Numbered from the stretch's first letter, positions 336 to 62,791 are shown. The stretch: 64,000 nt of DNA from an uncultured Gammaproteobacteria bacterium (GCA_964580825.1 CAZOLB010000001.1:3066-67065), one strand, 5' to 3'. A program made the numbers and translations. The notes: generated from the letters alone by a model not told the origin.

Positions 336-1391
336 TTATACTTTATTCTCCGTTTCTTCGGCCATTTTTAAAATATCCCTTTTTAAATCTCGCGCCACTT
401 TTTCATTATCTGTTAAAAATTTCTTGGCGTTTTCCCAACCGACTCCCAATTTATTTTCTCCATAATTCAGGGTATTGCCCGCTTTTTTAATCAAACCATA
501 TTTAGCCCCAAGACTTAATAAATCGCCAGCCCAAGATATCCCTTCATCGTACATGATCTCAAACTCGCAAACCCTGAACGGCGGCGCCACTTTATTTTTA
601 ACCACTTTAGCTTTGACTCTATTTCCGACTATTTGCTCCCCTTTTTTAATTTGAGCCGAACGCCTAAGCTCGACCCTGACCGAAGAATAAAATTTCAACG
701 CCAATCCTCCGGTTGTCGTTTCCGGATTGCCGAAAAAAACGCCAATTTTCATCCGAACCTGATTAATAAATATAACCGCAGTTTTAGTTTTACTGATAAT
801 ACCAGTCAGTTTCCGCAGAGCTTGCGACATCAAGCGCGCTTGAAGACCCATTTGCGAATCCCCCATTTCTCCCTCAATTTCCTTCTGCGGCGTTAAGGCG
901 GCAACTGAATCGACTACAATCACGTCCACGCCATTGGAACGAACCAAGGTTTCCACTATCTCCAACGCTTCTTCTCCACAAGAAGGTTGAGAAATCAATA
1001 AATCATCAATTTTTACGCCAATTTTCTTGGCATATTCGGGATCCAAAGCGTGTTCCGCGTCAATATAAGCCGCCGTACCGCCTTTTTTCTGGGTTTGAGC
1101 AATAATATGAAGAGCCAAAGTCGACTTTCCCGTCATTTCCTGTCCAAAAATTTCGATAATCCTGCCCCGCGGCACACCCCCGACGCCTAAAGCTAAATCT
1201 AAAGAAAAACAACCCGTAGGGATTACGTCCACAACCATTTTCTTCGCTTCTTTTAATTTCATAATACTCCCTTCCCCGAATCTTGACTTAATTTGCTCAA
1301 CAGCCATCTGAGCCGCCTTTTGACGACCATTTTTATTTTCGTCAACAGTAGATTTAGACGCTGAACCATTTTTCTCTTGTTTTTTAACCAT
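336..1391 (-). CDS. recA: Recombinase RecA
   Basis: 351 aa. Walker [10 protein letters not shown], the canonical RecA core (…[12 protein letters not shown]…VDSVAAL…) and L2 loop region give full-length RecA similarity. Confidence 0.95.
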
Positions 1392-2299: not shown

Positions 2300-4444
2300 T
2301 CAATATTCTTCGTCAGAAGAAGATTGAGTATATACTTCTCTTGGCTTGGCGCCGTCCGCCGGACCAATCGTCCCCTCTTCCTCTAATAAATCCAATAAGC
2401 GAGCGGCTCGAGCATAGCCAATCCGCAATCTCCGCTGAAGCAACGAAGCTGACGCTTTGCCAATTTGAAGAATCACCTCGCGAGCCTGAGGCAGCATTTC
2501 ATCCTCTTTTAACTCCCCCTTGGATCCCATAATCATCGACGACTGAGGCTCGATAATTTCTTGATTAAAATTGTATTCCGCCCCTTGAGCTAAATACTCT
2601 GTTAATCTCCCGACTTCTTCGTCGGAAACATAAGCGCCTTGGAGCCTTCTCGGTTTGGAAATTTCCGGCGAAATGAAAAGCATATCTCCCCTCCCCAAGA
2701 GTTTCTCTGCGCCGGCAAAATCCAGAATAGTTCTCGAATCAACCGCCGAAGCCACGGAAAAAGCCACCCTCGAAGTAATATTGGCCTTAATCAGTCCGGT
2801 AATAATATCCACTGACGGCCTTTGAGTCGCCATTACCAAGTGGATGCCCGTCGCTCTGGCCATTTGAGTTAACCTGATAATACAACCCTCGACCTCATGA
2901 GGCGCGGTCATCATTAAATCAGCCAATTCATCGACAATAATGACAATATAAGACAATTTTTTATCGGGATTCGCTTGGTTATAAGCGCTGATATCTCTTT
3001 TTTTGGCTTCGGACATAATCTCAAAACGACGCTCCATTTCGGTAATAGCCCATTTTAAAGCATTGATTGTTTTATCCACCTCAGTAATCACCGGAGTCAA
3101 TAAATGCGCCAAATTATTATAAAGAGTCAATTCGACTTTTTTGGGGTCGACAAGAATAAAACGCAATTCGTCGGCGAAATTTTGATAAACCAAACTGATA
3201 ATGACCGAATTTAAAAATATAGTTTTTCCCGAACCTGTAGCCCCGGCCACCAATAAATGAGGCATTTTCCCTAAATCAGCCAACCAAATATTACCCGAGA
3301 CATCCCGTCCCAAAGCGAGAGTTAGATTCGACTTTCTTTTCTTAAAAACCTCGCTATCCAAAATTTCCCTTAATCTGATAATCGCCACTTTTTGATTGGG
3401 AACTTCAATACCCACAAGAGATTGTCCCGGAATAGGAGCCTCAATACGAATAGGATGAGCAGCTAAAGCCATAGCCAAATCATTGTGAAGGGCGGTAATC
3501 TGAGATAATTTTATCCCCTCGGCCGGCTTTAACGTATATTGAGTAACCGTTGGACCCACTTTAACCTCCCCCATTTCTACCGGAATAGAAAAACTCTCCA
3601 AAGTTTTTTTTATTATCTCTTTATTTTCTCTAATGTCGCCGGCGTTAGGCTTGGTTGAGGTTTGTTCCAAAAGATTAAAAGGAAGATTAACTCTCTGATA
3701 AACTTTGGGAGGGGCGGTTAAAAATTCCTTTTCTTCGCCTTTCTTTTCTTTTTTAATCTTAATTCTAGTGAAAATAGATTCCGATTCTCTTGTTTTTTCG
3801 GCCGTTTCAATCACCTCCGACTGAATAACCATTTTCTTCTTTTTTTTGAAAATTAACAAAATCCTTTTTAGGATTCGGCGGAACGAATTTTCTTCGGTTA
3901 ATACTTCTTCATCGCTTTTACCCTGCCGCGCTTTGATTAAATCGCCAAAAACAATGACCATTAAAACAGCGAAAATGCCGGCAAAAACCACCCAACTAGC
4001 CCAAAACCCGAATGTTCCAACTACAATATAACTTAAACCATACCCAATATATCCGCCGCCTTGAAAATTTTGCAAAGCCGATTTATCATCAACAAAATAA
4101 ATATGCAATACGCCCGCTAAAACCGCCACTAACAAAACCAGCCCTAAAAACCTGCTTCTAAATCTAATTCTTAAATCCCCTTCTTTAAACTTATAATAAT
4201 TAAGACTTAGCAAGCCGGCAATCAACAAAACAATGGGAACAAACCATTTAGCAGCGCCAAAAAGAATCTCCAATCCCAAAACTAAAAATTCGCCGATAAT
4301 ACCCGCTAAATTAAAAAGCCCCAAAATCAGAACAATAGCGGCCGTAATAAAGATAATGGCGAATATCTGTTGTTGGAGTGGTGAAAAACTAAAAAAAATA
4401 GACCTCTTTTTCCTCTCATTTTTATGAGATTTCACTTTGGACAT
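2300..4444 (-). CDS. ftsK: DNA translocase FtsK/SpoIIIE
   Basis: 714 aa. Four or five N-terminal TM helices precede a linker and the FtsK motor domain (LLVAGATGSGKTIFLNSVI Walker A; VDELADLMM Walker B). The C-terminal gamma winged-helix is present (GYARAARLLDLLEEEG). Confidence 0.9.
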   Translation of the reverse strand: MSKVKSHKNERKKRSIFFSFSPLQQQIFAIIFITAAIVLILGLFNLAGIIGEFLVLGLEILFGAAKWFVPIVLLIAGLLSLNYYKFKEGDLRIRFRSRFLGLVLLVAVLAGVLHIYFVDDKSALQNFQGGGYIGYGLSYIVVGTFGFWASWVVFAGIFAVLMVIVFGDLIKARQGKSDEEVLTEENSFRRILKRILLIFKKKKKMVIQSEVIETAEKTRESESIFTRIKIKKEKKGEEKEFLTAPPKVYQRVNLPFNLLEQTSTKPNAGDIRENKEIIKKTLESFSIPVEMGEVKVGPTVTQYTLKPAEGIKLSQITALHNDLAMALAAHPIRIEAPIPGQSLVGIEVPNQKVAIIRLREILDSEVFKKRKSNLTLALGRDVSGNIWLADLGKMPHLLVAGATGSGKTIFLNSVIISLVYQNFADELRFILVDPKKVELTLYNNLAHLLTPVITEVDKTINALKWAITEMERRFEIMSEAKKRDISAYNQANPDKKLSYIVIIVDELADLMMTAPHEVEGCIIRLTQMARATGIHLVMATQRPSVDIITGLIKANITSRVAFSVASAVDSRTILDFAGAEKLLGRGDMLFISPEISKPRRLQGAYVSDEEVGRLTEYLAQGAEYNFNQEIIEPQSSMIMGSKGELKEDEMLPQAREVILQIGKASASLLQRRLRIGYARAARLLDLLEEEGTIGPADGAKPREVYTQSSSDEEY

Positions 4445-18602: not shown

Positions 18603-20099
18603 TTACTCTTGCTTATCTTTAAATGACTTTAAGCATTGCCGACAATAAACGGGCCTGATTCCATCGGGAATAAAGGGAACATAAATTTCTAGGCCGCATT
18701 TATCGCACTTCGACTTATATTTATTTGTTTCAATTTCCCTAATCTCTCCTTGCTTTTTCCCCTCCTTCCTCTTCTCTTTGGAGATCCCGAGCCAACGGCC
18801 TATTTTCTGCTCAACCAACCCCTGCGGTTCTGTATAACGTTCTCGCGAAATTTTTATTATCTTATCTTTATTTTCTTCCGGCTTCAGAGAAGACTCCGAT
18901 ATTCTGGCAAAAATAGGGTCGGAAATAGCGCCATTAACCGCCATTTTAACAAACAATTCATATCTCTTTAAATTAGCCAATTTATTTTTATTGAAACGTC
19001 GGCGCGCAACTTCCTTAGACAAAGATAAAGCGTCTTCGGCGTTCACTTTATAAGCGAGAATCGTTCCAATGTTATTAAAAATTGCATCTTTAATTCTCAA
19101 ATTCCGCTTTGTTTCGCTCAATTGCCCAAGATACTGATGCGCCAGGATTAAATTTACATAATGTTTATTTTCTTGAGAAATCATCTCTTTAAAAGAATCG
19201 GTAATCAGATCGGAGAACTCATCAATATATAAATAAAAATCGCGACGTTGATTTTCGGAAACACTAAGCCGCTCTATGGCAATCATCTGAATTTTTGTCA
19301 CCAACATCGCCCCGAAAAATGCGGCTATTTCTTCCCCAACTATCGCTTTTGACAAATTTACTATTAAAATTTTCTCTTTATTGATAACTTCATCGATGTC
19401 AACTTTCGAGCTAACTTGTCCGGCAATATTTCTCACTAAAGGAATAGAGAAAAAAGCGCCAATTTTCTCTTGTATGGGGATTATAACTTCAGTTCGTAAA
19501 CGCTCATCATATCGCGGATATTCCTTCTCCCAAAACGCTTTTACTCCCTCGTCGCTTACTCTCTCTACCACCTTCCGCCTATATTCTTCGTCGAGCAACA
19601 TTCTTTTAACACCTAAAAGTGTTGGGGACTGATATTCCAATAAAGCTAAAATAATATTGCGCAACACATGGATCACACGAGGATTAGGCAATTCACTTTT
19701 AATTTTCTCCAAAGCCGCAACAAGATTCGAAACAACCAAAAAATGCTGATAATTTCCCCCGACTCCCTTTAAAATATTAAAAGAAAAAGGATTTTTTACG
19801 TCCGCAAGATTAAGATAAATCGTATCATTAACGCGAGAAGAAGGAATAAAATCCACTACCCTTTTAGCCAAACCGCCATAAAAATCAATTAAAGCGACGC
19901 CATGGCCGGATAAAATGTCCTGACAAATCATTTTTTCCATCGTCCTTGACTTGCCGCTTCCCGCTACACCAATCAAATACATATGCCGCCGGCGGTCTTC
20001 CCTTTTAAGGCCCAGTTCGCGCCGAGGACCGTCGCCCTCCGTTTTGGCAAAAAAAACTATATCTTTTACTTCTTCTCCCTCTTTTTCGACTTCTACCAT
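18603..20099 (-). CDS. FtsK/HerA-superfamily P-loop ATPase (type IV coupling-protein/DUF87-like) with C-terminal Cys4 zinc ribbon; paralog 1 of 3
   Basis: Walker A is present (HMYLIGVAGSGKSRTM), as is Walker B (FYLYIDEFSDLI) and a downstream AHQYLGQL motif. The C-terminus is CDKCGLEIYVPFIPDGIRPVYCRQC. It has no TM helix. It is clearly paralogous to the ORFs at 48562 and 50296. The start is moved to the ATG at 20099 to avoid overlap with the upstream gene. Confidence 0.7.
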   Translation of the reverse strand: MVEVEKEGEEVKDIVFFAKTEGDGPRRELGLKREDRRRHMYLIGVAGSGKSRTMEKMICQDILSGHGVALIDFYGGLAKRVVDFIPSSRVNDTIYLNLADVKNPFSFNILKGVGGNYQHFLVVSNLVAALEKIKSELPNPRVIHVLRNIILALLEYQSPTLLGVKRMLLDEEYRRKVVERVSDEGVKAFWEKEYPRYDERLRTEVIIPIQEKIGAFFSIPLVRNIAGQVSSKVDIDEVINKEKILIVNLSKAIVGEEIAAFFGAMLVTKIQMIAIERLSVSENQRRDFYLYIDEFSDLITDSFKEMISQENKHYVNLILAHQYLGQLSETKRNLRIKDAIFNNIGTILAYKVNAEDALSLSKEVARRRFNKNKLANLKRYELFVKMAVNGAISDPIFARISESSLKPEENKDKIIKISRERYTEPQGLVEQKIGRWLGISKEKRKEGKKQGEIREIETNKYKSKCDKCGLEIYVPFIPDGIRPVYCRQCLKSFKDKQE

Positions 20100-20121
20100 A
20101 GTGGTTATTATACCATTTTCT

Positions 20122-21243
20122 TTATTTTTTTTCAACCGTCTTTTTAAAACCAAACTGCCGAAAGGAAAAGAAAACAATTAAACAGCTAGCTAAGGCAATT
20201 AAAAAAAACAAAGCAATCACTTTGCCCGTAGTCCTGGCAAATAAGGAAATAAATCCAAAAAAAACCGCAACTAACCAATAAAAGATAGCTGTCCCGCGAT
20301 GTGAAAATCCAATGTTTAATAAGCGGAAATGGAGATGTTTCTGATCACCTGAAAACGGCGAACGATGTTCAATAAAAATTCTTTGAATAACCACGCTAAT
20401 AAGATCGATGATTGCCAAGCCGAGAATTAAAAAAGTGGTTGCCAATTTGCCGCCTGAAATTATTGCCAAAATTCCCAATATAAAACCGGCAAAAAGACTC
20501 CCTCCTTCGCCTAAAAAAATCTTTGCCGGATGGAAATTAAAAACCAAAAATCCTAAACCAGCGCCGGCTAAAATCAAGGCCATTATTCCAATGTCAGGCT
20601 GATAAAACCTGGTTAAAAAACAAAGTCCGGCAATAGTTAAAGATCCGATAACCGTCATTCCCGAGACCAAGCCATCCAGTCCGTCGAGCAATTTGGTGGC
20701 ATACATTAAAACCATTAACCAAATAAAAGTTATAATATCAGCAAGAGGCGTAAAATAATATGGAATTCCGTTTAGACGGATTATCTCAATTTTTACCTTG
20801 TCAAAATATAAATAACCTTCTCTTAAAGGATTATTAATAAACTCAATGCCGATGCCGCTGGCAATAACCGCCAAACAAGCCAAAATCGGCCAAATAATCT
20901 GTTTCTGCGGTTTTACATTGTATTTATCATCTAAAAACCCCCCGACCATTAAAAACAAGCCGGCAATAAATATGCCCGCTAAATGTTTAATTGGGATTTT
21001 CCTGATAAATCCGCCTAATTCCGGAATTAAATTCCAGGGGTTAAAATAAATAATAAACAAAACAATAAAGAAAACGATGAAAATAGCCGTCCCGCCTAAA
21101 AGAGGCGTCGCTTCACGATGAATTTTACGCTCTATCACTCCCGCATAATCAAGAATTCGCCATTTTATAGCCAAACGGCGAATCAAAAAAGTAAAAACAA
21201 CCGAAAGAATAAAACCAATTAAAAATAAAATTAAGAACAACAT
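20122..21243 (-). CDS. Polyprenyl-phosphate N-acetylhexosamine-1-phosphate transferase (MraY/WecA, glycosyltransferase family 4)
   Basis: 373 aa with about 10 TM helices and the cytoplasmic loop motif GGFLDDKYN. This is family-level similarity; MraY versus WecA/TagO is not resolved. Confidence 0.65.
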   Translation of the reverse strand: MLFLILFLIGFILSVVFTFLIRRLAIKWRILDYAGVIERKIHREATPLLGGTAIFIVFFIVLFIIYFNPWNLIPELGGFIRKIPIKHLAGIFIAGLFLMVGGFLDDKYNVKPQKQIIWPILACLAVIASGIGIEFINNPLREGYLYFDKVKIEIIRLNGIPYYFTPLADIITFIWLMVLMYATKLLDGLDGLVSGMTVIGSLTIAGLCFLTRFYQPDIGIMALILAGAGLGFLVFNFHPAKIFLGEGGSLFAGFILGILAIISGGKLATTFLILGLAIIDLISVVIQRIFIEHRSPFSGDQKHLHFRLLNIGFSHRGTAIFYWLVAVFFGFISLFARTTGKVIALFFLIALASCLIVFFSFRQFGFKKTVEKK

Positions 21244-37383: not shown

Positions 37384-38301
37384 TTATTTATATATTTTAT
37401 TGGTCAATTTTATTTTTTCTCCATCGCCGAGAAAAATAATATCACCTAATTCGTCTGTCCTTAGAATTTCCGCGCCCACTTCTTTTAAATTGTTCAAAAC
37501 CCTTAAACTGGGATGGCCGAAAGCGTTCTCACCCACGGAAATGACGCCGTATTGCGGCTCAACCAATTTTAAAAATTCAAGACCGGAAGAATATTTTGAC
37601 CCATGATGCCCGACTTTTAAAACATCTGCTTTCAAATTAACGCCCGATTTTATTATTTCTTCTTCCGCTTCGGTTATAGCGTCGCCGGTAAAAAGCAAAC
37701 TATTATTCTTATAAGTCAATTTTAAAACAAGGGAAGTAAAATTATCGTCTCCCTTTAACCTTTTAATTTGATTTTGAATCGGCCAAAAAAAATCCATTTT
37801 TATTTCTCCGTCTCCATCCTCCAAAACAATCCTCTGGGTAGCGTCGATTGCCTGCTGGGGGATATTTTTCTGCTCAATTATCTTCTTCCATTCCAAGGCG
37901 GCGAAAGTGTTATCTTTTAAACCGTTGCTCACCACTCGTTTAACGGGATAACGCTCCAAAACTTCGACTAAGCCGGTCAAGTGATCAAGTCCGAAGTGGG
38001 TTAAAATCATCAAGTCGATTCTCCGATTATTTATCGGGATATATTTGTCCAATTTATGAATAATATTCTTTTCCGGACCGCCATCAATCAAAATATTATA
38101 CCCTTTGGGGGTTTGGATTAAAGCCGCGTCCCCTTGCCCGATGTCAAAAAAAACAACCCTCAAACTATTTTTTGGCGGGAAAGAGACAAAAGAAAAATAA
38201 CCTAAAACCACCAAATTAATGAACAAGAGTAGGCCGACAAACAAAATCAACCACTTAAACAAAATTTTTCTTTTTATTTTATTTTTTATATTTTTTGTCA
38301 T
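37384..38301 (-). CDS. comEC: ComEC/Rec2 C-terminal part: metallo-beta-lactamase domain with an N-terminal TM anchor
   Basis: …VVFFDIGQGDAALIQTPKGYNILIDGG… and …LILTHFGLDHLTGL…HHGS… are the MBL metal-binding motifs typical of the ComEC C-terminal domain. It lies 15 nt downstream of the N-terminal ComEC ORF. Confidence 0.75.
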   Translation of the reverse strand: MTKNIKNKIKRKILFKWLILFVGLLLFINLVVLGYFSFVSFPPKNSLRVVFFDIGQGDAALIQTPKGYNILIDGGPEKNIIHKLDKYIPINNRRIDLMILTHFGLDHLTGLVEVLERYPVKRVVSNGLKDNTFAALEWKKIIEQKNIPQQAIDATQRIVLEDGDGEIKMDFFWPIQNQIKRLKGDDNFTSLVLKLTYKNNSLLFTGDAITEAEEEIIKSGVNLKADVLKVGHHGSKYSSGLEFLKLVEPQYGVISVGENAFGHPSLRVLNNLKEVGAEILRTDELGDIIFLGDGEKIKLTNKIYK

Positions 38302-38316
38302 AACGATCCCTAAAAA

Positions 38317-39807
38317 TTATTTTTTATCTGTCTGTTCGACTCTTTTTTGCCTTTGCAGAATTTGAACGACAAAAAATGCGATCAAAACGTACAGAATAAT
38401 AGCAATGATAAAATGAACTTTGCCGAAAGTAAAAGAAAGTCCGGGAATAGCGGATAAAAACTTCACTAAAAGAATAGTATACGTAAGAATTAGCCAACTG
38501 GGCCAAATTAAAATTTTAGCCAAGCCGACAACTCCGCCTAAAAAGAAAATAAAACCGAAAGCCATGCCAATCGGCAAAACCGGCAAAATCAAAATATTTG
38601 CCAAAACAGCGATTAAAGATAAATTTCCGAAATAATATAAAATCAAAGGAAAAACAAAAAGTTGAGCCGATAAACTCGCGCTTAAATAATGGCGTAGAGG
38701 GAAATAATGAAAATTAGGAATTTTTTGAAAAAGAGAATTAAAATAACTCCCCATTAAAGACATGCCTAAAACGGACATGAAAGACAGCTGGAAACCCACG
38801 TCTGATTTCAAAAGTTTGGGATTGAATAAAAGCATTAAAAAACCAGAAAAAACCAGTATTCTAAAAAAATCTTTGGGTCGGCCAATTTTCATCGCGTAAG
38901 CCGTTGCCAAACCCATAATAACCGCCCGTATCGCTGAAGGCGGCGCGCCGACTAAAACAACAAAAACAAAAATAATCGCAAAAATCAAATAAAACGCTTT
39001 TGAACGACGAAGATGCAGCGTTGTTACGAAAAAATACGAAAGCAAGGCGCAAAGCACACTGATATGCAAGCCGGAAACGGCCAAAATATGAGATACTCCC
39101 GCCCGGCTAAATTCGGCGCGTAAATCTTGAGGAATTTCACGCTGCCGGCCAAGCAATAAAGCCGATAAAATCGACCCCTGGGGTTCGGAAAAATTCAAAT
39201 CAATCAAACGCTCAAATTTATTTTTAACCACCAAAATCTTTGAATAAACATCCGAAACTTCGGATTTCTTTAAAATTTTGATTTCCGGCCAATAGCAAGT
39301 CGAATAAACGTCATAACGGGCCAGATACTCATAATAATTAAAATTTGCGAAAACTCCCGGTTCGTTTAATTGGCAATTTATTTCCACCAGATCCCCATAC
39401 TGGTAATCGGAATAAAGAGGAATATCAACCAACACCCTTCCTTGAAGCGGCAGATTTCCTAAAATTATATCGCCGATTGTAATTTTAATTTCATCAACCC
39501 TTTGATCGGGCTCTTTAATTACTTTTCCCCGAAAAACGACCCGAGAACCGTTATAATAAGAAATATGAGATTGGTCTATTTTAGGAAAACTTATTTGATA
39601 ACGAAATACGCCAAAAATGAAAAATAAAATTAAAAAAATTGCCGGCGAGATTCTCTTAGTGGGCAAAATCACCAGCCAAACAATCAAAAATAACAAAAAT
39701 AAAGGAATATAGACAAAAAACGGAAGAGATAAAAAAGAAGAAACGCCGACGCCAAGAATAAAAAAAATCAAGGACCAAGTAATGATTTTTGAAGTAAGGA
39801 TATTCAT
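38317..39807 (-). CDS. comEC: ComEC/Rec2 N-terminal part: DUF4131 (OB-fold) plus polytopic competence channel domain
   Basis: 496 aa. There are two N-terminal TM helices and a soluble OB-like segment. About 8 TM helices follow, with the competence-domain pattern (…RAGVSHILAVSGLHISVL…). Confidence 0.75.
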   Translation of the reverse strand: MNILTSKIITWSLIFFILGVGVSSFLSLPFFVYIPLFLLFLIVWLVILPTKRISPAIFLILFFIFGVFRYQISFPKIDQSHISYYNGSRVVFRGKVIKEPDQRVDEIKITIGDIILGNLPLQGRVLVDIPLYSDYQYGDLVEINCQLNEPGVFANFNYYEYLARYDVYSTCYWPEIKILKKSEVSDVYSKILVVKNKFERLIDLNFSEPQGSILSALLLGRQREIPQDLRAEFSRAGVSHILAVSGLHISVLCALLSYFFVTTLHLRRSKAFYLIFAIIFVFVVLVGAPPSAIRAVIMGLATAYAMKIGRPKDFFRILVFSGFLMLLFNPKLLKSDVGFQLSFMSVLGMSLMGSYFNSLFQKIPNFHYFPLRHYLSASLSAQLFVFPLILYYFGNLSLIAVLANILILPVLPIGMAFGFIFFLGGVVGLAKILIWPSWLILTYTILLVKFLSAIPGLSFTFGKVHFIIAIILYVLIAFFVVQILQRQKRVEQTDKK

Positions 39808-48561: not shown

Positions 48562-50154
48562 CTAACGACGAGGGCGTGGAGGATTATCTTTTTTAAATTC
48601 TATACCTAATTCCGAGAGTTCAGCAACGCCGCTTGTATTTCTATAAGATGTTCTCATTTGGGGGTTTTTGATTATTGGTTTGACTTCGCCACTTTTTATT
48701 TTTTCCAAACAATCATGACAATAGACCGGTCGGCGTGAGTCTGGCTTAAAAGGCACTTTAGTTTCCTTTTTGCAAGCCGAACATTCGGCCAAATAAAGCC
48801 CTGAAGCCGTAGTGCTTATCCCACTACTCCACTCCCTAATTTCATCTTCAATCTCCTGTCGAGGCCGGGTATAAAGACGGCGAGACGTCTCAATCAACTT
48901 CTGAGGATCCACTACTCTATCTTCTTTTAATTCAAAAGGGGGCATAGTCTTAGCTGAAAAAGGACGGCTAGTAACGCTGTTAACCATTAATTTAATATAA
49001 ATGCGATAGTTGGGTAAATTAACGATATCTTGGGCGGTAAACTCCGGACTAAATTCTTTTTCTAAAAACTCGGCATCGGCTGCGCCAACCCGAAAAGAAA
49101 TCATCGTGCCAACGTTGCCAAAAACCGAATCGCGAACTGTCGAAGACGATTCCGTGCTTAACTGTCCGATATATTGATGAACAATAGTCAAGTTGAGATA
49201 ATATTTTCGCGCTTCAGAAAGAATGCCGGCAAACGACTCAGTCACAAAATTTTGAAATTCGTCAACATACAAATAAAAATCTTTGCGTTCTTTTTCGGGA
49301 ATACGCACTCGCTCCATGGCGGAAAGCTGAATTTTAGTAATCAACATCGCTCCCAACAAAGCCGAATTATCTTCACCGATTCTCCCCTTGGAAACGTTAA
49401 CTAAAAATATCTTTCCTTTATTCATAATGTCGAAAAGGTCGATAGTGCTTTCTTTTTGTCCGACCACATTACGCACTAGAGAGGTGGAAAGAAACTGTCC
49501 GACTTTATTTTGAATCGGCGCGATCGCTTCACTCCTAAAACTGTCTTTCCATTCTTCATATTCATTAATCCAAAACGCTTTAACTACAGGGTCTTTAAGA
49601 TTTTTAACAATCATTTGTCTATATTCTTTATCAACTAATAACCTCGGTATTCCCAAGAGGGTCGTATTCGGCGTATCCAAAAGGGCCAAAATGGCATTAT
49701 TAAGAATATATTCCATTCTCGCTGACCAAACATTAGCCCAAAGTTTAGTAAAAATCCCCATTAAGCCAGAGGCGACTAAATGTTTATATTTTGGGTCGGG
49801 TAGGGCTAAAATATTGAAGCCAGCATGATAATCTGTATCGGCGGGATTAAAATAAATAACGTCTTTTTCTCTTTTTGTGGGTATTTTTTTTAAAATCGAC
49901 TCGACTAATTCGCCATGAGGATCAATGACACAAACCCCCTCGCCATTCATAATATCCTGCAAAATCATATTATGGATAAAAACCGATTTACCAGTACCGG
50001 TTTTACCGACCACGTACATATGTTGGCGCCTATCTTTTCTTTTAATGCCAAAAATTCTTTCGGTGTTGCGAAAGTCCGTTTTGGCTAAATAAATAATATC
50101 TTTATTTTCCTCTCCGGCCCCGAGAGAATTGCTATTTTTATTTTCTTCTGCCAT
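48562..50154 (-). CDS. FtsK/HerA-superfamily P-loop ATPase (coupling-protein/DUF87-like) with C-terminal Cys4 zinc ribbon; paralog 2 of 3
   Basis: Walker A RQHMYVVGKTGTGKSV, then VIDPHGELV. Walker B is FYLYVDEFQNFV, followed by TIVHQYIGQLS. The C-terminus is CSACKKETKVPFKPDSRRPVYCHDCL. It has no TM helix. Confidence 0.7.
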   Translation of the reverse strand: MAEENKNSNSLGAGEENKDIIYLAKTDFRNTERIFGIKRKDRRQHMYVVGKTGTGKSVFIHNMILQDIMNGEGVCVIDPHGELVESILKKIPTKREKDVIYFNPADTDYHAGFNILALPDPKYKHLVASGLMGIFTKLWANVWSARMEYILNNAILALLDTPNTTLLGIPRLLVDKEYRQMIVKNLKDPVVKAFWINEYEEWKDSFRSEAIAPIQNKVGQFLSTSLVRNVVGQKESTIDLFDIMNKGKIFLVNVSKGRIGEDNSALLGAMLITKIQLSAMERVRIPEKERKDFYLYVDEFQNFVTESFAGILSEARKYYLNLTIVHQYIGQLSTESSSTVRDSVFGNVGTMISFRVGAADAEFLEKEFSPEFTAQDIVNLPNYRIYIKLMVNSVTSRPFSAKTMPPFELKEDRVVDPQKLIETSRRLYTRPRQEIEDEIREWSSGISTTASGLYLAECSACKKETKVPFKPDSRRPVYCHDCLEKIKSGEVKPIIKNPQMRTSYRNTSGVAELSELGIEFKKDNPPRPRR

Positions 50155-50295
50155 AGCTAATATTATAACCTCTTTATTTTATTAAGACAACTATTTTATC
50201 GCTTTTAAAAAATAAAAAGGGATTAAACTCCCAAAAAACCGATAACAATATCCGCCAAGTATCATAACAAAATGACATTAAAATTAAAACGATTA

Positions 50296-51759
50296 CTAAA
50301 TGAGAGGTCGGGGATTGTCAGTATCTTTCTTATCTTCTTTACCGCTTTCGCTTGAGCCTTCTTTTTTTTCTTTAATCGCCGCTTTTTCTTGAGCGCTTCG
50401 CAAAATTTGCGCTTCTTCTTCCTCAATTAATTTTTTTGCCGCATCGGCAGAAATACTATACTTGCGTCGAGAAGATTCGATAATTTCCTCTTTATACGAT
50501 GGGTGATTAGGGGACAAGACGCTTAAAGTTTGGGCGGAAAAGGGATCATAGGACTCGCCATTAATCATCAATTTAATATAAAATTCCCTTTTACCCAAAT
50601 TAATCATATCTTTGGCTTTAAAAATCGGGGCCATATCCGATTCCAGCGCTCCCGCATCGTCGCCGCCGACTCGAAAAATAATAATCGTAGCCACATTGCC
50701 CAAAACCGAAGCCTGTACTCGCGGCAAAAGTTGACTCAAATATTGGTGGGCGACTGTCAAACAAATGCCATACTTTCTTGACTCCGACAATAAATTCTCA
50801 AACGTCTCGGTTACCAAATTATGAAACTCATCAACATATAAATATAATGGCTTTCTCTCTTTTTCCGGAATATTCGCCCTTCCCATGCCGGCTTGTTTGA
50901 TTTTAGTGACAAATATCGAGCCAAAGAAACTGGAATTCTCCTCTCCCAACCTACCCTTGGAAAGATTAATAAAAATTATTTTTTCTTGATTCATTAATTT
51001 TTCTAAATCTACCTTATTCTCTTTTTGTCCAAAAATATTCCTCAACATCGGGTCGGCTAAAAATTGTCCGAGTTTATTGACTAAAGGAATAATAGCGTCG
51101 GTATCGAATTTTTCCGACCAATCGGCAAACTCAATCGCCCAAAAACGTTTAACCATATCGTCGGTTATATACTCGACCACTTTCTGGCGATAATTACGGT
51201 CAGTAAGCAGAGAAATCATCCCCCTCATCGTCGCATAAGGATAATCCAGAAGAGCCAAACAGGTAAAACGGAAAACGTGTTCCAGGCGCGGTGTCCAATT
51301 AGCGCCAAATTGTTTTTTTATCACTTCGATTAAACCTTGGGTTAATTGAAATTTGAAGCCTGGATCGACGTTAGATAAAGGATTAAAAGAAACGGGGTGC
51401 TCATTGTCGGAAGGGTCAATTAATACCACGTCGTCAATCCTTTCCTTGGGAATAAAGTCCAAAAGAAGCTCAATAACGTCACCGTGGGGGTCGATAAAAC
51501 AAACTCCCTTGCCATAAGCAATATCCTGACGAACAAGAAGTTCCAAAAGTTTTGATTTTCCCACACCGCTCTTGCCAATAATATAAATATGGCGATCTCG
51601 ATCTTCGCGTTTTATTCCAAAAACAAACAGTTTCTCTTCAAGGGCGGCCACATAATTTGTCCGCCCGATAAAAGAAACGTCTTTTGGATCAACGTTCCCC
51701 AATACCGGCAACTCCGGCGGCGGCGGAGCGTAACGAATAATCTGAATTTTTTCAGCCAT
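50296..51759 (-). CDS. FtsK/HerA-superfamily P-loop ATPase (coupling-protein/DUF87-like); paralog 3 of 3, without zinc ribbon
   Basis: Walker A RHIYIIGKSGVGKSKL, then FIDPHGDVI. Walker B is LYLYVDEFHNLV, followed by TVAHQYLSQL. The C-terminal tail is acidic and K-rich instead of Cys4. It is collinear with paralogs 1 and 2 over about 400 aa. Confidence 0.7.
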   Translation of the reverse strand: MAEKIQIIRYAPPPPELPVLGNVDPKDVSFIGRTNYVAALEEKLFVFGIKREDRDRHIYIIGKSGVGKSKLLELLVRQDIAYGKGVCFIDPHGDVIELLLDFIPKERIDDVVLIDPSDNEHPVSFNPLSNVDPGFKFQLTQGLIEVIKKQFGANWTPRLEHVFRFTCLALLDYPYATMRGMISLLTDRNYRQKVVEYITDDMVKRFWAIEFADWSEKFDTDAIIPLVNKLGQFLADPMLRNIFGQKENKVDLEKLMNQEKIIFINLSKGRLGEENSSFFGSIFVTKIKQAGMGRANIPEKERKPLYLYVDEFHNLVTETFENLLSESRKYGICLTVAHQYLSQLLPRVQASVLGNVATIIIFRVGGDDAGALESDMAPIFKAKDMINLGKREFYIKLMINGESYDPFSAQTLSVLSPNHPSYKEEIIESSRRKYSISADAAKKLIEEEEAQILRSAQEKAAIKEKKEGSSESGKEDKKDTDNPRPLI

Positions 51760-51874
51760 AAGTGCTTTACTAATATGAAAAACTAAAAAATCTTTCTTTC
51801 CATGGTCATAACTTTTATCTCATCTTTTTGTTCTATAAAATTTTTATGTTTTTAAGTATGTGTTTTTTTATTTT

Positions 51875-52531
51875 TTATTTTTCTGGCAAAGCACCCAATT
51901 CTTTTAAAAAATTCTCGAAGGCCATTACCGCTATTTTTGCTTCCGTCTCGCTAACTGCGGAGCCAGAAACATGAACCAAACCATTCCGAAGAATATGGGC
52001 GTCCCAAACGCCATTCAAACTTTTCACGTCAGAAATAACATGCGATAGGCGTTCGGCCATATAATCGCCGGCATATCCCGCTTTTTTTAGAAAATTATCC
52101 ACTAAAGCATCTGCTTCAATAATCGCCAATTTCAAATTGGACGGAGTCGGCAAAGATAATTTATTTTTTACTTTTTGCCATTGGCTTACAAATTTTTTGT
52201 CCACGTAAACAACTTTTTCCCTCTCTTCTTTTAACCAATGGAAAAGTTTAATTTTATGTCTTAATGGCCAAACTTTGGTAAAAACATATAATATGCAAAA
52301 AATCAATAAAATGTCCAAAATAATTATACAAGGACGAGCCGTATATCGCCAAAAAACCAAGAAATTCTGAAACCATTCATATTTTCCCAGGGGAAAATTC
52401 AAAATAGAAGCAATATCGGTCATGAATACCGCGCCAATCGCGATAAAAAACACAATAAATAAAAATATGACATACCACATAAAAATCCGATTAAATAATA
52501 AACCAATAAGATTCTGTTTCTCTCTCCTCAA
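51875..52531 (-). CDS. Hypothetical membrane protein (2-3 N-terminal TM helices plus about 110-aa cytoplasmic domain)
   Basis: Hydrophobic segments IFMWYVIFLFIVFFIAIGAVFM and IIILDILLIFCILYVFTKVW. No recognisable family. It is co-directional with, and 12 nt from, the upstream 442-aa gene, and 115 nt upstream of the ATPase pair. Confidence 0.4.
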   Translation of the reverse strand: MRREKQNLIGLLFNRIFMWYVIFLFIVFFIAIGAVFMTDIASILNFPLGKYEWFQNFLVFWRYTARPCIIILDILLIFCILYVFTKVWPLRHKIKLFHWLKEEREKVVYVDKKFVSQWQKVKNKLSLPTPSNLKLAIIEADALVDNFLKKAGYAGDYMAERLSHVISDVKSLNGVWDAHILRNGLVHVSGSAVSETEAKIAVMAFENFLKELGALPEK

Positions 52532-52542
52532 ATTAAATTCTT

Positions 52543-53871
52543 TTATTGCCCAAATTTTTCTAAGGCTTTTTCTTCGCCAAAAATTGGCAATCCGACTTCC
52601 GGCGCCACTTTACGCCCTTCCAACCTTTGAATATAAGGAGTGACCATTACAGCGCTTGTTGGCGGATGAAAGAGAGTGGCAACCGCCCTTACTGTCAATT
52701 TAACAACTCTTGAATGAAAATTCCAATTTAAAAAATGAGAAGTTAAAATTCGACCCATAAACGTTTCTTCGGGCATTTCTCGTCTCCGATAAAATGATAG
52801 AATCCGCTCTTTACGCAATTTATTGCGGGACTTTGGAAAGATATACGGACTTACCCAAATTTTCGTTCTCGTGCTCATTCTGTGATTCTGCCGAAAAGAA
52901 TTTAAATTAGGCGCAGCATATTGATTAAAAGCTCCAATCAATCCTCGACGGGCATAACTATCAAAAAAAATTGTCTGGGGAGAAATATAAACAAAACGAA
53001 TTAAAGTATCAAAGGCTTGACTGGAAAGATTTTCATCTATTGATTTAATGGCAGCAACCTCCCCCGGGGTGCTTGGTATTTTTTCAATTTTCGATTCTCC
53101 GTCTTTTGTCGTTCCCGTTTTAATTTCTTTTGGTTTTTGCAAATCCCTAATAAACTTTTCCCATCGTTTATTCCAATTGGGTTCAGCCGGCGCGATATTT
53201 ATCTGAATGCCGACCATTTCTCCGTCTCTTACTTCGCCCAAAACTTCCAAAAATGAAGAAATTGGATCAGCCGCTTCTTTTTCTTTCCCCTCAAATTCAT
53301 TATACATTTTAATGGGATAAGCCTCCGGCCGGGCAAGAACTATTTCGCTTCCCCATAAACCAAGGCCTTTTTTTTCTAAATCATTTACATCTTTAGGCAA
53401 AGAAGAAATATAATCTTCCACCTCCACTATCTCTATTTCCGTATAATATGAAAGAAAGGCGGCTTTAACTAAATCCTTTTGTCTTTTTTCCGTTCTAATG
53501 TAGAAATGAATTTTACCGGCAAGACTAACCATTTCAAGGGTAAACCACTTGGTTATTTCTCCTTTCCAATATCTCTCGCTAACATCTTCAGGCCAATTTC
53601 GCAACCCCCAAATCGCCTTTAAAGCTTGCTCCATACTCGCGGGACTCCTTGAAATCTCTCTGGGAATTAATATTTCCATAAGCACGTACTCCCTGCTTCT
53701 TTTATAAAGAGTCTGCCGCCAAAAAAGCCAAATTGAATGATTAATCGGCAATAAAATAATAAAAAGCAAAAACCACCAGGTTTCGCTTAAAAATAAATAA
53801 ATAAAACGCCAGATATCCGTCGGTATGTTTAAAAAAACATCGAATAATTGTTGATGTATTGCCTCGTTCAT
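52543..53871 (-). CDS. Hypothetical membrane-anchored protein (N-terminal TM hairpin plus about 380-aa soluble domain)
   Basis: The TM region is IWRFIYLFLSETWWFLLFIILLPINHSIWLFW. The large soluble region has no motif I can assign. It is the first gene of the co-directional block 53871 to 48562. Confidence 0.4.
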   Translation of the reverse strand: MNEAIHQQLFDVFLNIPTDIWRFIYLFLSETWWFLLFIILLPINHSIWLFWRQTLYKRSREYVLMEILIPREISRSPASMEQALKAIWGLRNWPEDVSERYWKGEITKWFTLEMVSLAGKIHFYIRTEKRQKDLVKAAFLSYYTEIEIVEVEDYISSLPKDVNDLEKKGLGLWGSEIVLARPEAYPIKMYNEFEGKEKEAADPISSFLEVLGEVRDGEMVGIQINIAPAEPNWNKRWEKFIRDLQKPKEIKTGTTKDGESKIEKIPSTPGEVAAIKSIDENLSSQAFDTLIRFVYISPQTIFFDSYARRGLIGAFNQYAAPNLNSFRQNHRMSTRTKIWVSPYIFPKSRNKLRKERILSFYRRREMPEETFMGRILTSHFLNWNFHSRVVKLTVRAVATLFHPPTSAVMVTPYIQRLEGRKVAPEVGLPIFGEEKALEKFGQ

Positions 53872-61501: not shown

Positions 61502-62791
61502 TTAAAACAAACTTTTCTGATTGCGCGGCGTCTTCTTTTTTCTGACTATTTCTCTTTTTATCTCAGGCTTTCCAAAAATGCCGATTTCCCCATAAACGCC
61601 GTCATATCCCGGTTTAATAAACAATTCTTCTCGCCTAACCCGATCTATCCCTTGTATAATTCTCTCGTCAATCCCCTTGGATTTCATTTCCGCCAAAGGA
61701 CAATCTATTAGGATAAAAAGTTCATTACCCAAAATTTTAACCATCTTAAAATAAGCATCCATCACCGTCCGCGATTCGCGCGTTTTAATCTCAAAAGACT
61801 GAGCGATAATTTTATCCAATTCAATTAATCTTTTGTATCTCGGTTTATTCTTGGGCGTATATCCCAACTCACGATCGGCCAACTCCTCCACCCGATAACT
61901 AACCCCTGCCGTCAAAGGTTTTTTACATTTTGGACAAATACCTTTATATTTAACCGTCTGTTTTGGCTCTAAAGAAACGCCGCAATCCCGATGGCCGTCA
62001 AAATGATACCGCCCTTCTTCGGGAAAAAATTCAATAGTGTATAAAAATTTGTTAATATCCTTTTGTTTTAAAATCCTAATCAACTCGTCATAAGAAAAAT
62101 CCGCTTCTTTAATTTCAAAAACATTCGCTTCCCGGCCGATATTCTTCAATGAATGGGAATCGGAATTAGAAACCAAAATATATGGATCAAGAGCCGAAAC
62201 CCGCCAATTCATCGGCGGATCGGAACTAATGCCGGTTTCCAAAGCGAAAATATACGGCGCCATATCTTCAAAACACTCTTTAATGCTATTGAAGCCGGAT
62301 TTTGAACCAAATAAAGAAAACCAAGGAGTCCAAATATGCGCCGGAATAATCTCTATTTTTTCATCAACGCTTTTTACCAATTCCAGAAAATTTCTATCAG
62401 ATAATCCCAAAATTGGCCGGCCATCCGATTTTAAATTAAAACCCCTATCTTGCAGGGTTTTATTTAATTTCTTGACCGCTTCAATAGAGGGCGCTAAAAC
62501 AATTTCATGAACTCTCCTGGTTTTTTCATTCTTTCGATAAATAAACGACAGTTCGGTGGTAAAAATAAAATAAACGCTTTTGACGCTGTTTTTAAGCCGA
62601 TAAAAGCCATTGCCGACCGCGGTCAATTGTTCTTCACACTCCTTAATCCAAGTCGGATGAGTAAAATCGGCTGTAGTCAACAAATTAACTCCCTTAATCT
62701 CGCCCCATTTTTCAAGATTAGGCAAAGTTAATTGAGGGGAACAAGCCCGAGAAAAACGAGAATGATTATGAATATCGGCTATAACGCGCAT
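61502..62791 (-). CDS. PHP-domain nuclease of the Endonuclease Q (EndoQ, TIGR00375-like) family with C-terminal zinc finger
   Basis: The N-terminus RVIADIHNHSRFSRACSP matches the EndoQ PHP metal-binding start (DLHIHSRYSRA). Further His/Asp ligands are spread along the protein. The zinc finger is CPKCKKPL. Confidence 0.65.
   Translation of the reverse strand: MRVIADIHNHSRFSRACSPQLTLPNLEKWGEIKGVNLLTTADFTHPTWIKECEEQLTAVGNGFYRLKNSVKSVYFIFTTELSFIYRKNEKTRRVHEIVLAPSIEAVKKLNKTLQDRGFNLKSDGRPILGLSDRNFLELVKSVDEKIEIIPAHIWTPWFSLFGSKSGFNSIKECFEDMAPYIFALETGISSDPPMNWRVSALDPYILVSNSDSHSLKNIGREANVFEIKEADFSYDELIRILKQKDINKFLYTIEFFPEEGRYHFDGHRDCGVSLEPKQTVKYKGICPKCKKPLTAGVSYRVEELADRELGYTPKNKPRYKRLIELDKIIAQSFEIKTRESRTVMDAYFKMVKILGNELFILIDCPLAEMKSKGIDERIIQGIDRVRREELFIKPGYDGVYGEIGIFGKPEIKREIVRKKKTPRNQKSLF

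Follow-up and report, generated by a model that had tools for sequence, protein, structure and literature searches.

What does a coupling-type ATPase do in a bacterial chromosome when it stands behind two membrane proteins? The question is raised by four genes within a 64,000-nucleotide stretch of DNA (GCA_964580825.1, CAZOLB010000001.1:3066-67065), referred to here as the window, which is core chromosome of an uncultured Patescibacteria bacterium. The open reading frame (ORF) listing agrees with the first-pass annotation in giving four co-directional minus-strand genes, here called M1 (52543-53871, 442 aa), M2 (51875-52531, 218 aa, from a TTG start), A1 (50296-51759, 487 aa) and A2 (48562-50154, 530 aa), with gaps of 11, 115 and 141 nt between them. 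Coordinates are those of the window, and all features of these four genes lie on the minus strand. M1 belongs to the family DUF8128 (PF26449) and is predicted to be membrane-anchored with a domain like the N-terminal domain of VirB4; M2 is a predicted membrane-anchored HEPN protein; A1 and A2 appear to be type IV coupling protein (T4CP)-type ATPases without transmembrane (TM) helices, A2 with a C-terminal zinc finger. The set had been taken for a minimal translocation or secretion apparatus. On balance, and with modest confidence, the module is better described as a membrane-docked, conjugation-derived coupling ATPase that is split into separate genes, a substrate-receptor motor that would hand its substrate to a channel elsewhere.

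The two ATPases are paralogues, 44% identical over 416 residues (BLASTP, E 3e-129), so that the paralogy stands whilst the figure is slightly lower than the 45-50% that had been judged by eye. They carry the motifs HIYIIGKSGVGKS or HMYVVGKTGTGKS, then IDPHGD/E, (L/F)YLYVDEF and AHQYLSQL or VHQYIGQL, and all the motifs quoted in the first-pass annotation are present, including the C-terminal Cys4 segment CSACKKETKVPFKPDSRRPVYCHDC. Read from the sequence, the Walker A motif of A1, GKSGVGKS (residues 62-69), lies at 51553-51576 and its Walker B motif, LYLYVDEF, at 50824-50847; neither motif varies in the alignments of paralogues and orthologues. A1 and A2 pass the Pfam gathering thresholds for TrwB_AAD_bind (42-45.5 bits, threshold 20.5), T4SS-DNA_transf (37.5-38.2 bits, threshold 20.1), TraG-D_C and DUF87, with E-values for A1 of 7.3e-11, 1e-9 and 3.4e-7 for the first three models. 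TrwB, the T4CP of R388, is the sole solved relative of the ATPases that is found by sequence, and the family profile aligns to it in hhalign at 93.9% over residues 118-393, starting just past the TM domain. The profile likewise aligns to TrsK, the Gram-positive T4CP of pSK41, at 88.9% over 300 columns. Against the VirB4 protein of R388, TrwK, the value is only 17.8% and confined to the P-loop, and against the VirB4-like TrsE of pSK41 it is 87.7% but over 106 C-terminal columns only. Hydropathy shows no hydrophobic TM segment in either A1 or A2. The Pfam matches, the preference of the profile for TrwB and TrsK over TrwK and the start of the alignment beyond the TrwB membrane domain together point to A1 and A2 being additional-strand catalytic-E (ASCE) ATPases of the T4CP type (TrwB/VirD4/TraD) that lack the membrane domain, which upholds both their placement in the FtsK/HerA-related coupling-protein clade and the absence of N-terminal TM helices.

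The models for individual named systems are not reached. Scores fall short of the NCBIfam cut-offs for T4CPs (SXT_TraD, 53-57 bits against 366; conju_CD1115, 46-50 against 250), for VirB4 (TIGR00929, 17 bits against 643) and for the archaeal Ced/Ted proteins (CedD, 31-36 bits against 600; CedB, 13 against 700). The FtsK_SpoIIIE model gives 21.6 bits on A2, below its cut-off of 24 and on the P-loop only. Moreover, a complete FtsK with 4TM, alpha, beta/motor and gamma domains is encoded separately from the module at 2300-4444 (minus strand), which removes division or segregation as a role for the module, and the candidate of an FtsK substitute was rejected.

A2 ends in a treble-clef zinc finger, CxxC-x17-CxxC (residues 454-486, 48697-48795; 48709-48783 in the motif scan), that is recognised by TIGR04272 (2.6e-14, 52.7 bits against 36) and by PF23477, zf_Tbcl_2 (8.9e-14, 51.3 bits against 27). 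This domain binds zinc in small proteins of Methanosarcina (M. mazei) (PMC12704099). The finger is found in 10 of 13 full-length A2-type orthologues and in none of 68 A1-type ones, and A1 and A2 are clean orthologous groups. A1-type proteins are further marked by a C-terminal end (E/Q)P(L/I)(I/V), present in 57 of 61 complete orthologues and absent from A2, A3 (see below) and ABY1-type ATPases. In the window this tip reads RPLI (50299-50310; EPLI in most species), follows a charged low-complexity linker and is a candidate docking motif. A1 is also more conserved than the membrane proteins, its orthologues being 74-83% identical as against 47-62% for M1 and 25-40% for M2. The closest relative of A1 outside the Patescibacteria (38.8% identity, 395 aa) is a TM-less T4CP-like protein on the Sulfitobacter plasmid NZ_CP081110 (L092:5989-7176), where it is encoded singly among transposases. 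This alphaproteobacterial plasmid is non-mobilizable, and its annotation shows no M1-like gene in the vicinity.

A third paralogue, A3 (18603-20177, minus strand, 524 aa), lies outside the reported interval and had been missed when the ATPases were described as a tandem pair. It appears to be another TM-less T4CP-type ATPase, with a single marginal internal hydrophobic segment (283-302, score 1.61), intact Walker motifs, 35% identity to A1 and a zinc finger at 18633-18707; it matches TrwB_AAD_bind at 2.7e-5 and zf_Tbcl_2 (PF23477) at 9.9e-11 (41.6 bits). A3 is flanked by an MraY-like GT4 gene on one side and an LPG-synthase-TM gene on the other, and is one gene from alaS.

Both membrane proteins had been called members of no known family. 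M1 is a DUF8128 protein: PF26449 is annotated on an identical protein (P0001) and on nearly all homologues, and the M1 homologues are all Patescibacteria proteins carrying this family, the closest named one (63% identity) belonging to Patescibacteria bacterium AH-259-L07. Searched with a profile, 1.84 billion cluster representatives yielded 2,546 members, nearly all of them full length at 400-480 aa, and a literature search on DUF8128 or PF26449 found no papers. Hydropathy and flanking charge predict a TM anchor at residues 22-51 (53719-53808) with the N-terminus out and the C-terminus in, the N-terminal flank having no K/R and a net charge of -3 and the C-terminal flank having five K/R. In the AlphaFold2 (AF2) model (pLDDT 88.4, pTM 0.85) this segment lies inside a long N-terminal helix, residues 2-59, in which W48 and R52 are conserved across the family. 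The helix is followed by an alpha/beta domain (residues 62-400, 52672-53688) that has no P-loop and is predicted to be cytoplasmic. The top 13 Foldseek matches are all chains of TrwK, with probabilities of 0.95-1.0, and include an N-terminal-only chain of 457 residues. As these matches all fall on TrwK, M1 is predicted to be a single-pass membrane protein that folds, in its cytoplasmic domain, like the N-terminal part of VirB4. Public gene calls start M1 at Met65 (378 aa) and thereby lose the TM helix (affected stretch 53680-53871). The longer form is supported because the N-terminal region is conserved in orthologues.

M2 has no match in Pfam, NCBIfam or PADLOC. Its AF2 model (pLDDT 85.9) consists of a TM hairpin and a C-terminal helical bundle, the latter with pLDDT above 90. 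The hairpin (about residues 18-44 and 62-90, 52262-52480) is placed by hydropathy within residues 7-48 and 62-90 and corresponds to model helices 2-44 and 52-97; many orthologues have the second TM helix only. The bundle (residues 112-211, 51899-52198) is predicted to be a cytoplasmic HEPN domain from its fold and from the motif A-H-x2-R-N-x3-H, whose R182-H187 portion lies at 51971-51988, and a second conserved stretch, I-I-E-A-D, occupies residues 137-141. R182-N183-x3-H187 and I-I-E-A-D are invariant in an alignment of 21 M2 sequences, and AH..RN...H is kept in 69 of 79 orthologues. Both the helical-bundle fold and the R-x4-6-H motif that characterise HEPN proteins are thus found, and M2 is predicted to be a membrane-anchored, cytoplasm-facing HEPN domain with an intact RNase-type R-x4-H motif. 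From the charge distribution, the soluble domains of M1 and M2 are both predicted to lie in the cytoplasm. Public calls start M2 at Met18 (201 aa), which affects the stretch 52481-52531.

The arrangement of these genes was compared by scanning GTDB species genomes with the M1 family and applying ORF calling and phmmer to 80 loci from different species. M2 is directly downstream of M1 in 77 of 77 loci, and an ATPase follows M2 directly in 63 of 69 (61 A1-type and two A2-type). M1-M2-A1 is therefore a conserved syntenic unit. The linkage of the membrane genes to an ATPase in related genomes, on which the first-pass annotation had made its proposal depend, does exist; of its four-gene unit, the M1-(M2)-ATPase part is conserved, but the tandem arrangement of both paralogues is not general, since A1 and A2-type genes both occur within 8 kb in only nine of 45 loci. 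The unit is usually preceded by secD, secF and a gene with sigma70_r4 and HARE-HTH domains, and is usually followed by tandem Cys-rich zinc-finger proteins of about 580 aa. The secDF and sigma-like genes are absent from the window, where dnaJ lies upstream and rsmI downstream of the module, and as these flanks differ from the usual ones the M1-M2-A1 trio has survived rearrangement. Of six loci from distant lineages (Kerfeldbacteria and relatives), five have an ATPase gene directly behind DUF8128 and no HEPN gene. The DUF8128-adjacent ATPases of two of these, L087 and L089, give 586 and 533 bits to A2 as against 417 and 416 bits to A1. Because the distant DUF8128-adjacent ATPase is A2-like and no HEPN gene is present, DUF8128 with an A2-like ATPase would be the old core, to which M2 and the A1 duplicate were probably added later.

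In other settings the two halves are found within one chain. The 824-position profile phrog_5156 is matched by M1 at positions 78-213 and by A1, A2 and A3 at 396-819 (A3 at 2.5e-42). In gp156 of Bacillus phage G (825 aa) the M1 profile aligns to residues 8-253 (93.1%, E 3e-7) and A1 to about 380-773 (E 8e-36). A 904-aa 'DUF87 protein' on a Bacillus plasmid (NZ_CP086062), which appears to be an independent fusion, is matched by M1 at residues 54-179 (94.0%, E 1.5e-7) and by A1 at about 303-747. Its gene sits in a Tcp-type conjugation cluster together with Replic_Relax, TcpC, TcpE and a VirB4-like AAA_10 ATPase. These fusions have the domain order and size of VirB4 (TrwK has 823 aa), but the sequence of the motor is T4CP-like. 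Because M1 and the ATPase are fused in gp156 and in the Bacillus protein, and are also syntenic, there is strong evidence from sequence comparison that the two would act as one machine. A 620-aa Microcystis phage homologue was considered as a third fusion and set aside, as its N-terminal region is not M1-like (0.2%). A phage or viral origin of M1 was likewise rejected, as M1 has no tblastn match in 50,697 phage records and none on IMG/VR viral contigs, leaving only the profile-level match to gp156. The neighbour of gp156 in phage G, gp155, resembles the VirB4/TraG P-loop proteins, so that this jumbo phage carries a pair of ATPases (L090:2196-6338) whose family is that of type IV secretion systems (T4SS).

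How does the module compare with systems that are already understood? It shares with the coupling proteins TrwB, VirD4, TraD and TrsK the nucleotide-binding domain, whose Walker A-B region aligns over 267-300 columns. Unlike the T4CPs, A1 and A2 lack the N-terminal two-helix membrane domain, and membrane attachment would be supplied by the separate, VirB4-NTD-like M1. Moreover, their genes are chromosomal, near-universal in the phylum and unlinked to a relaxase or virB4, and there are three ATPase paralogues in the window, two of them with zinc fingers. The disordered C-terminal tail of A1 with its conserved tip resembles that of TraD, whose tail binds TraM. VirB4 (TrwK) shares the fold of its N-terminal domain with M1, and M1 plus A1, or gp156, reproduce its domain order and size; it differs in that the A1-type motor is T4CP-like, the two parts are split into two genes and M1 has a TM helix of its own. 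The N-terminal domain of VirB4 contacts the membrane partners VirB3 and VirB8, as is also stated in the descriptions of PDB entries 8rtb and 8rtd. As the fold occurs in both settings, the N-terminal domain of VirB4 may be a portable module for docking at the membrane that VirB4 and a subclass of coupling proteins have in common.

In gp156 and the Bacillus 904-aa protein both halves are homologous to M1 and the ATPases at profile level, but those proteins are single-chain, have no N-terminal TM anchor, HEPN partner or zinc finger, and are carried on mobile elements. The Bacillus plasmid copy is placed as a coupling protein would be, next to the relaxase-family gene, TcpC, TcpE and the VirB4-like ATPase. 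For M2, a functional precedent, with a likeness at fold level only, is VBP of Agrobacterium, a HEPN protein that is likewise paired with T4SS ATPases. VBP, which combines nucleotidyltransferase and HEPN domains, is dimeric, binds VirD4, VirB4 and VirB11 and brings the substrate to the coupling protein (PMC3953389). VBP is soluble and begins with the nucleotidyltransferase domain, whereas M2 is membrane-anchored, lacks that domain and keeps the R-N-x3-H motif. The pair of EccE and EccC from the mycobacterial type VII system is a more distant parallel: its structural score falls far below that of VirB4, A1 and A2 are single-domain T4CP-type proteins whilst EccC is triple-domain, and no other Esx components are present.

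From these comparisons a working model can be outlined. M1 would serve as the dock that tethers an oligomer of A1, the motor, at the cytoplasmic face of the membrane, a task that falls to the N-terminal domain in the case of the VirB4 motor. Hexamers are the typical form of T4CPs. M2, probably as a HEPN dimer, would sit beside the motor and act either as an adaptor, like VBP, or as a processing RNase whose substrate is nucleic acid. The ...EPLI tip of A1, carried on its disordered tail, may recruit a partner. A2 resembles the ancestral partner of DUF8128 and, with its zinc finger, could be an alternative or additional substrate-binding motor that may share the M1 dock. Driven by nucleoside triphosphates, the assembly would thus recognise a macromolecular substrate and deliver it at the membrane; the most plausible substrate is nucleic acid or nucleoprotein. 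As the module contains no channel component it must pass the substrate on or act only at the cytoplasmic face; in the former case the receiving channel would be encoded elsewhere and is most plausibly the chromosomal mating-pair-formation (MPF)-FATA-like T4SS of the Patescibacteria. Since there is no channel protein, virB4 or relaxase in the module, it looks like a membrane-docked substrate-receptor motor and not a self-sufficient secretion apparatus.

An ancestry in monoderm conjugation is the best-supported reading of the split coupling ATPase. There are, however, several results that weigh against the wider interpretation of a conjugation-derived motor serving a channel elsewhere. No virB4, virB6 or relaxase gene is present in the 64-kb window, and none of the 80 loci has relaxase or mating-pair-formation genes either, although the Bacillus fused homologue does have such an association. 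The assignments of the M1 fold and of the M2 HEPN domain both rest on predicted structures plus motifs. For M1 the Foldseek TM-scores are low (0.31-0.35), and in hhalign its profile gave 0.3% against TrwK and 0.1% against TrsD of pSK41, which is a weak test as each target was a single sequence; in view of this lack of signal, the ideas of M1 as a TrsD homologue or as a sequence-detectable fragment of VirB4 were dropped. For M2 there is no sequence-level match to HEPN entries in a profile search of the PDB or in Pfam and NCBIfam, and the attempt to place it in a sequence-based HEPN family, PADLOC included, was abandoned in favour of fold plus motif. Furthermore, the loci compared were the 80 best M1 matches and six distant ones, and are biased to close relatives of M1 rather than being a random sample of the phylum.

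The literature on the phylum adds to this side of the balance. Quinonero-Coronel et al. 2025 found 5,713 VirD4-like T4CPs in 2,918 of 3,035 Patescibacteria genomes (96%), about two per genome (PMC12102498), which means that ATPases of this sort had already been catalogued. Only 148 of the 5,713 T4CP genes are near virB4, and VirB4 itself is found in 80% of the genomes (2,417); TrsD-like proteins, which resemble the VirB4 N-terminus, number about one per genome and are mostly beside virB4 (PMC12102498). In Southlakia the t4cp gene is non-essential although the T4SS is essential (PMC12102498). The survey left the role of the orphan T4CPs open, stating that exaptation "cannot be ruled out", and did not examine their gene neighbours (PMC12102498), whilst the main text of Wang et al. 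2023 does not mention VirD4 or T4CPs (PMC10633639). The ancestry of the module favours the Patescibacteria T4SS as its possible partner, while the wider occurrence of the T4CPs than of VirB4, the missing linkage and the Southlakia findings speak against a strict dependence.

It is from the same figures that the chief alternative draws its strength, namely that the module is a nucleic-acid motor independent of any T4SS, which either pulls in or processes DNA or RNA that enters by way of ComEC and type IV pili, for nucleotide scavenging, or exports RNA or DNA, with the HEPN RNase trimming it at the membrane. This is rather unlikely, but it would account for T4CP-like genes that outnumber VirB4 in genomes and almost never lie beside virB4, and it is consistent with the catalytic-type R-N-x3-H motif kept by M2, with the zinc fingers of A2 and A3 and with the high identity of A1, which suggests a core function. 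The link to uptake is less consistent. As the first-pass annotation stated, comEC is kept in the window (38317-39807), and it is two to four genes downstream of the module in the distant loci L089 and L099; but in the window some 9 kb containing unrelated genes separates the two, and its proximity elsewhere lies within a long conserved housekeeping run. Moreover, ComEC is dispensable in Southlakia (PMC12857230). The closest fused homologue lies in a conjugation cluster, which points to coupling of an export type, and as the HEPN protein is absent from distant lineages that keep DUF8128 and the ATPase, RNase action cannot be the core activity. A bolder form of the idea, put forward with the same low expectation, is that the orphan T4CP-like ATPases, DUF8128 and, in Paceibacteria, the membrane HEPN RNase constitute an unrecognised T4SS-independent core machine that translocates or processes nucleic acid, possibly RNA, at the membrane. 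It would represent a third lineage of T4SS-family ATPases, in which an N-terminal domain of the VirB4 type is combined with a motor of the VirD4 type, suited to host-dependent life, and could then serve nucleic-acid exchange with, or scavenging from, the host cell.

Other explanations fare less well against the conservation of the locus. An anti-phage or anti-plasmid defence system, in which an FtsK/HerA-like ATPase senses or translocates invading nucleic acid and activates the membrane HEPN RNase to bring about abortive infection, is very unlikely. The ATPases do match the PADLOC models mad8 (2e-15) and HerA, weakly, but M1 and M2 match none, and with no complete catalogued system found the candidate of a known defence system was rejected. 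The module is single-copy and, across classes, lies in a conserved core context (secDF, the sigma-like gene, mnmA, alaS) rather than in variable islands. The 74-83% identity of A1 between species is unlike that of fast-evolving defence genes, T4CP-like genes are in 96% of genomes (PMC12102498), distant lineages without the HEPN gene retain the other parts, and M1 has no match on IMG/VR viral contigs. The self-sufficient apparatus of four proteins favoured by the first-pass annotation, with a pore made from the TM helices of oligomeric M1 and M2, is also highly improbable. Its genes run close together in one direction, a scan for consensus matches only shows no terminator-like site in the three gaps, and oligomers of M1 and M2 could supply many TM helices per assembly. 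However, M1 has a single TM helix and M2 has one or two, hardly any of their residues are extracytoplasmic and their soluble domains are predicted to be cytoplasmic, and no polytopic protein like VirB6, ComEC or the 4TM part of FtsK belongs to the conserved unit. The related gp156 and Bacillus 904-aa proteins have no N-terminal TM anchor at all, and the Bacillus one stands beside a full Tcp channel set. Least probable by far, and close to negligible, is that the genes are left over from an integrated conjugative element, are in decay and no longer have a function. Conjugative ancestry and the lack of a relaxase nearby would fit, but all ORFs are intact, the Walker motifs are complete, nearly all of the 2,546 DUF8128 cluster representatives are full length and both sequence and gene order show strong conservation across 80 species and also further afield.

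Read as a docked, split coupling ATPase, the module gives a genomic context, with DUF8128 as the partner, to the so far unexplained orphan coupling ATPases of almost all Patescibacteria, and a predicted structural identity to a DUF family of more than 2,500 sequence clusters. A large part of bacterial diversity belongs to the Patescibacteria, which are host-dependent and whose T4SS is essential in the only species in which this has been tested. What is new here is the split, membrane-tethered architecture, for which the fused relatives, one in jumbo phage G and others in Tcp-type plasmids of Gram-positive bacteria, serve as evolutionary anchors, together with lineage-specific accessories in the form of the membrane HEPN protein, the zinc-finger paralogues and the conserved C-terminal candidate docking tip.

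Two families recur beside the module in other genomes. Immediately upstream of DUF8128, at position -1 in 60 of 63 loci and itself preceded by secD and secF, is a gene for a protein of about 340-385 aa with sigma-70 region 4 at its N-terminus and a HARE-HTH domain like that of RNA polymerase delta near its C-terminus. It occurs in Paceibacteria and in the distant lineages (L007:6680-7699, L087:5859-6977, L089, L097-L099). Downstream, the Cys-rich family of about 580 aa, which has no annotation, is present as one to five tandem copies after the module (L001:11529-17407, L005:11598-13376 and 47 other loci). These proteins have an N-terminal treble-clef finger, CPxCRxxRRxxxRNxxxLYKRxCDLC, and frequently, as in A2, a zf_Tbcl_2 finger at the C-terminus, and they are possible substrates or partners of the module. 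The family has no member in the window, where only its zinc-finger part finds matches, in A2 and A3.

The remaining features concern the window itself. Directly upstream of A2 there is a promoter-like site, TTGTCT-17-TATAAT (50162-50190, minus strand), found by consensus scan only. The core-chromosome content comprises 23S and 5S rRNA genes, five tRNA genes, ORFs of rpoB/C size, recA (336-1391, minus strand), ftsK, alaS, metG, dnaJ, comEC and mnmA, and an identical locus is present on several metagenome contigs. The comEC gene takes the form of two ORFs, one with DUF4131 and Competence domains at 38317-39807 and a separate metallo-beta-lactamase ORF at 37384-38301, both on the minus strand. 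A 429-aa ORF without a Pfam match (61502-62791, minus strand) adjoins the 5S rRNA gene and might be the insertion sequence element mentioned in the first-pass annotation. With a single exception, the 2-kb bins across the whole window have a negative GC skew (about -0.1 to -0.25), and the minus strand carries nearly all genes; given this skew and strand bias, the window appears to be read against the leading strand.

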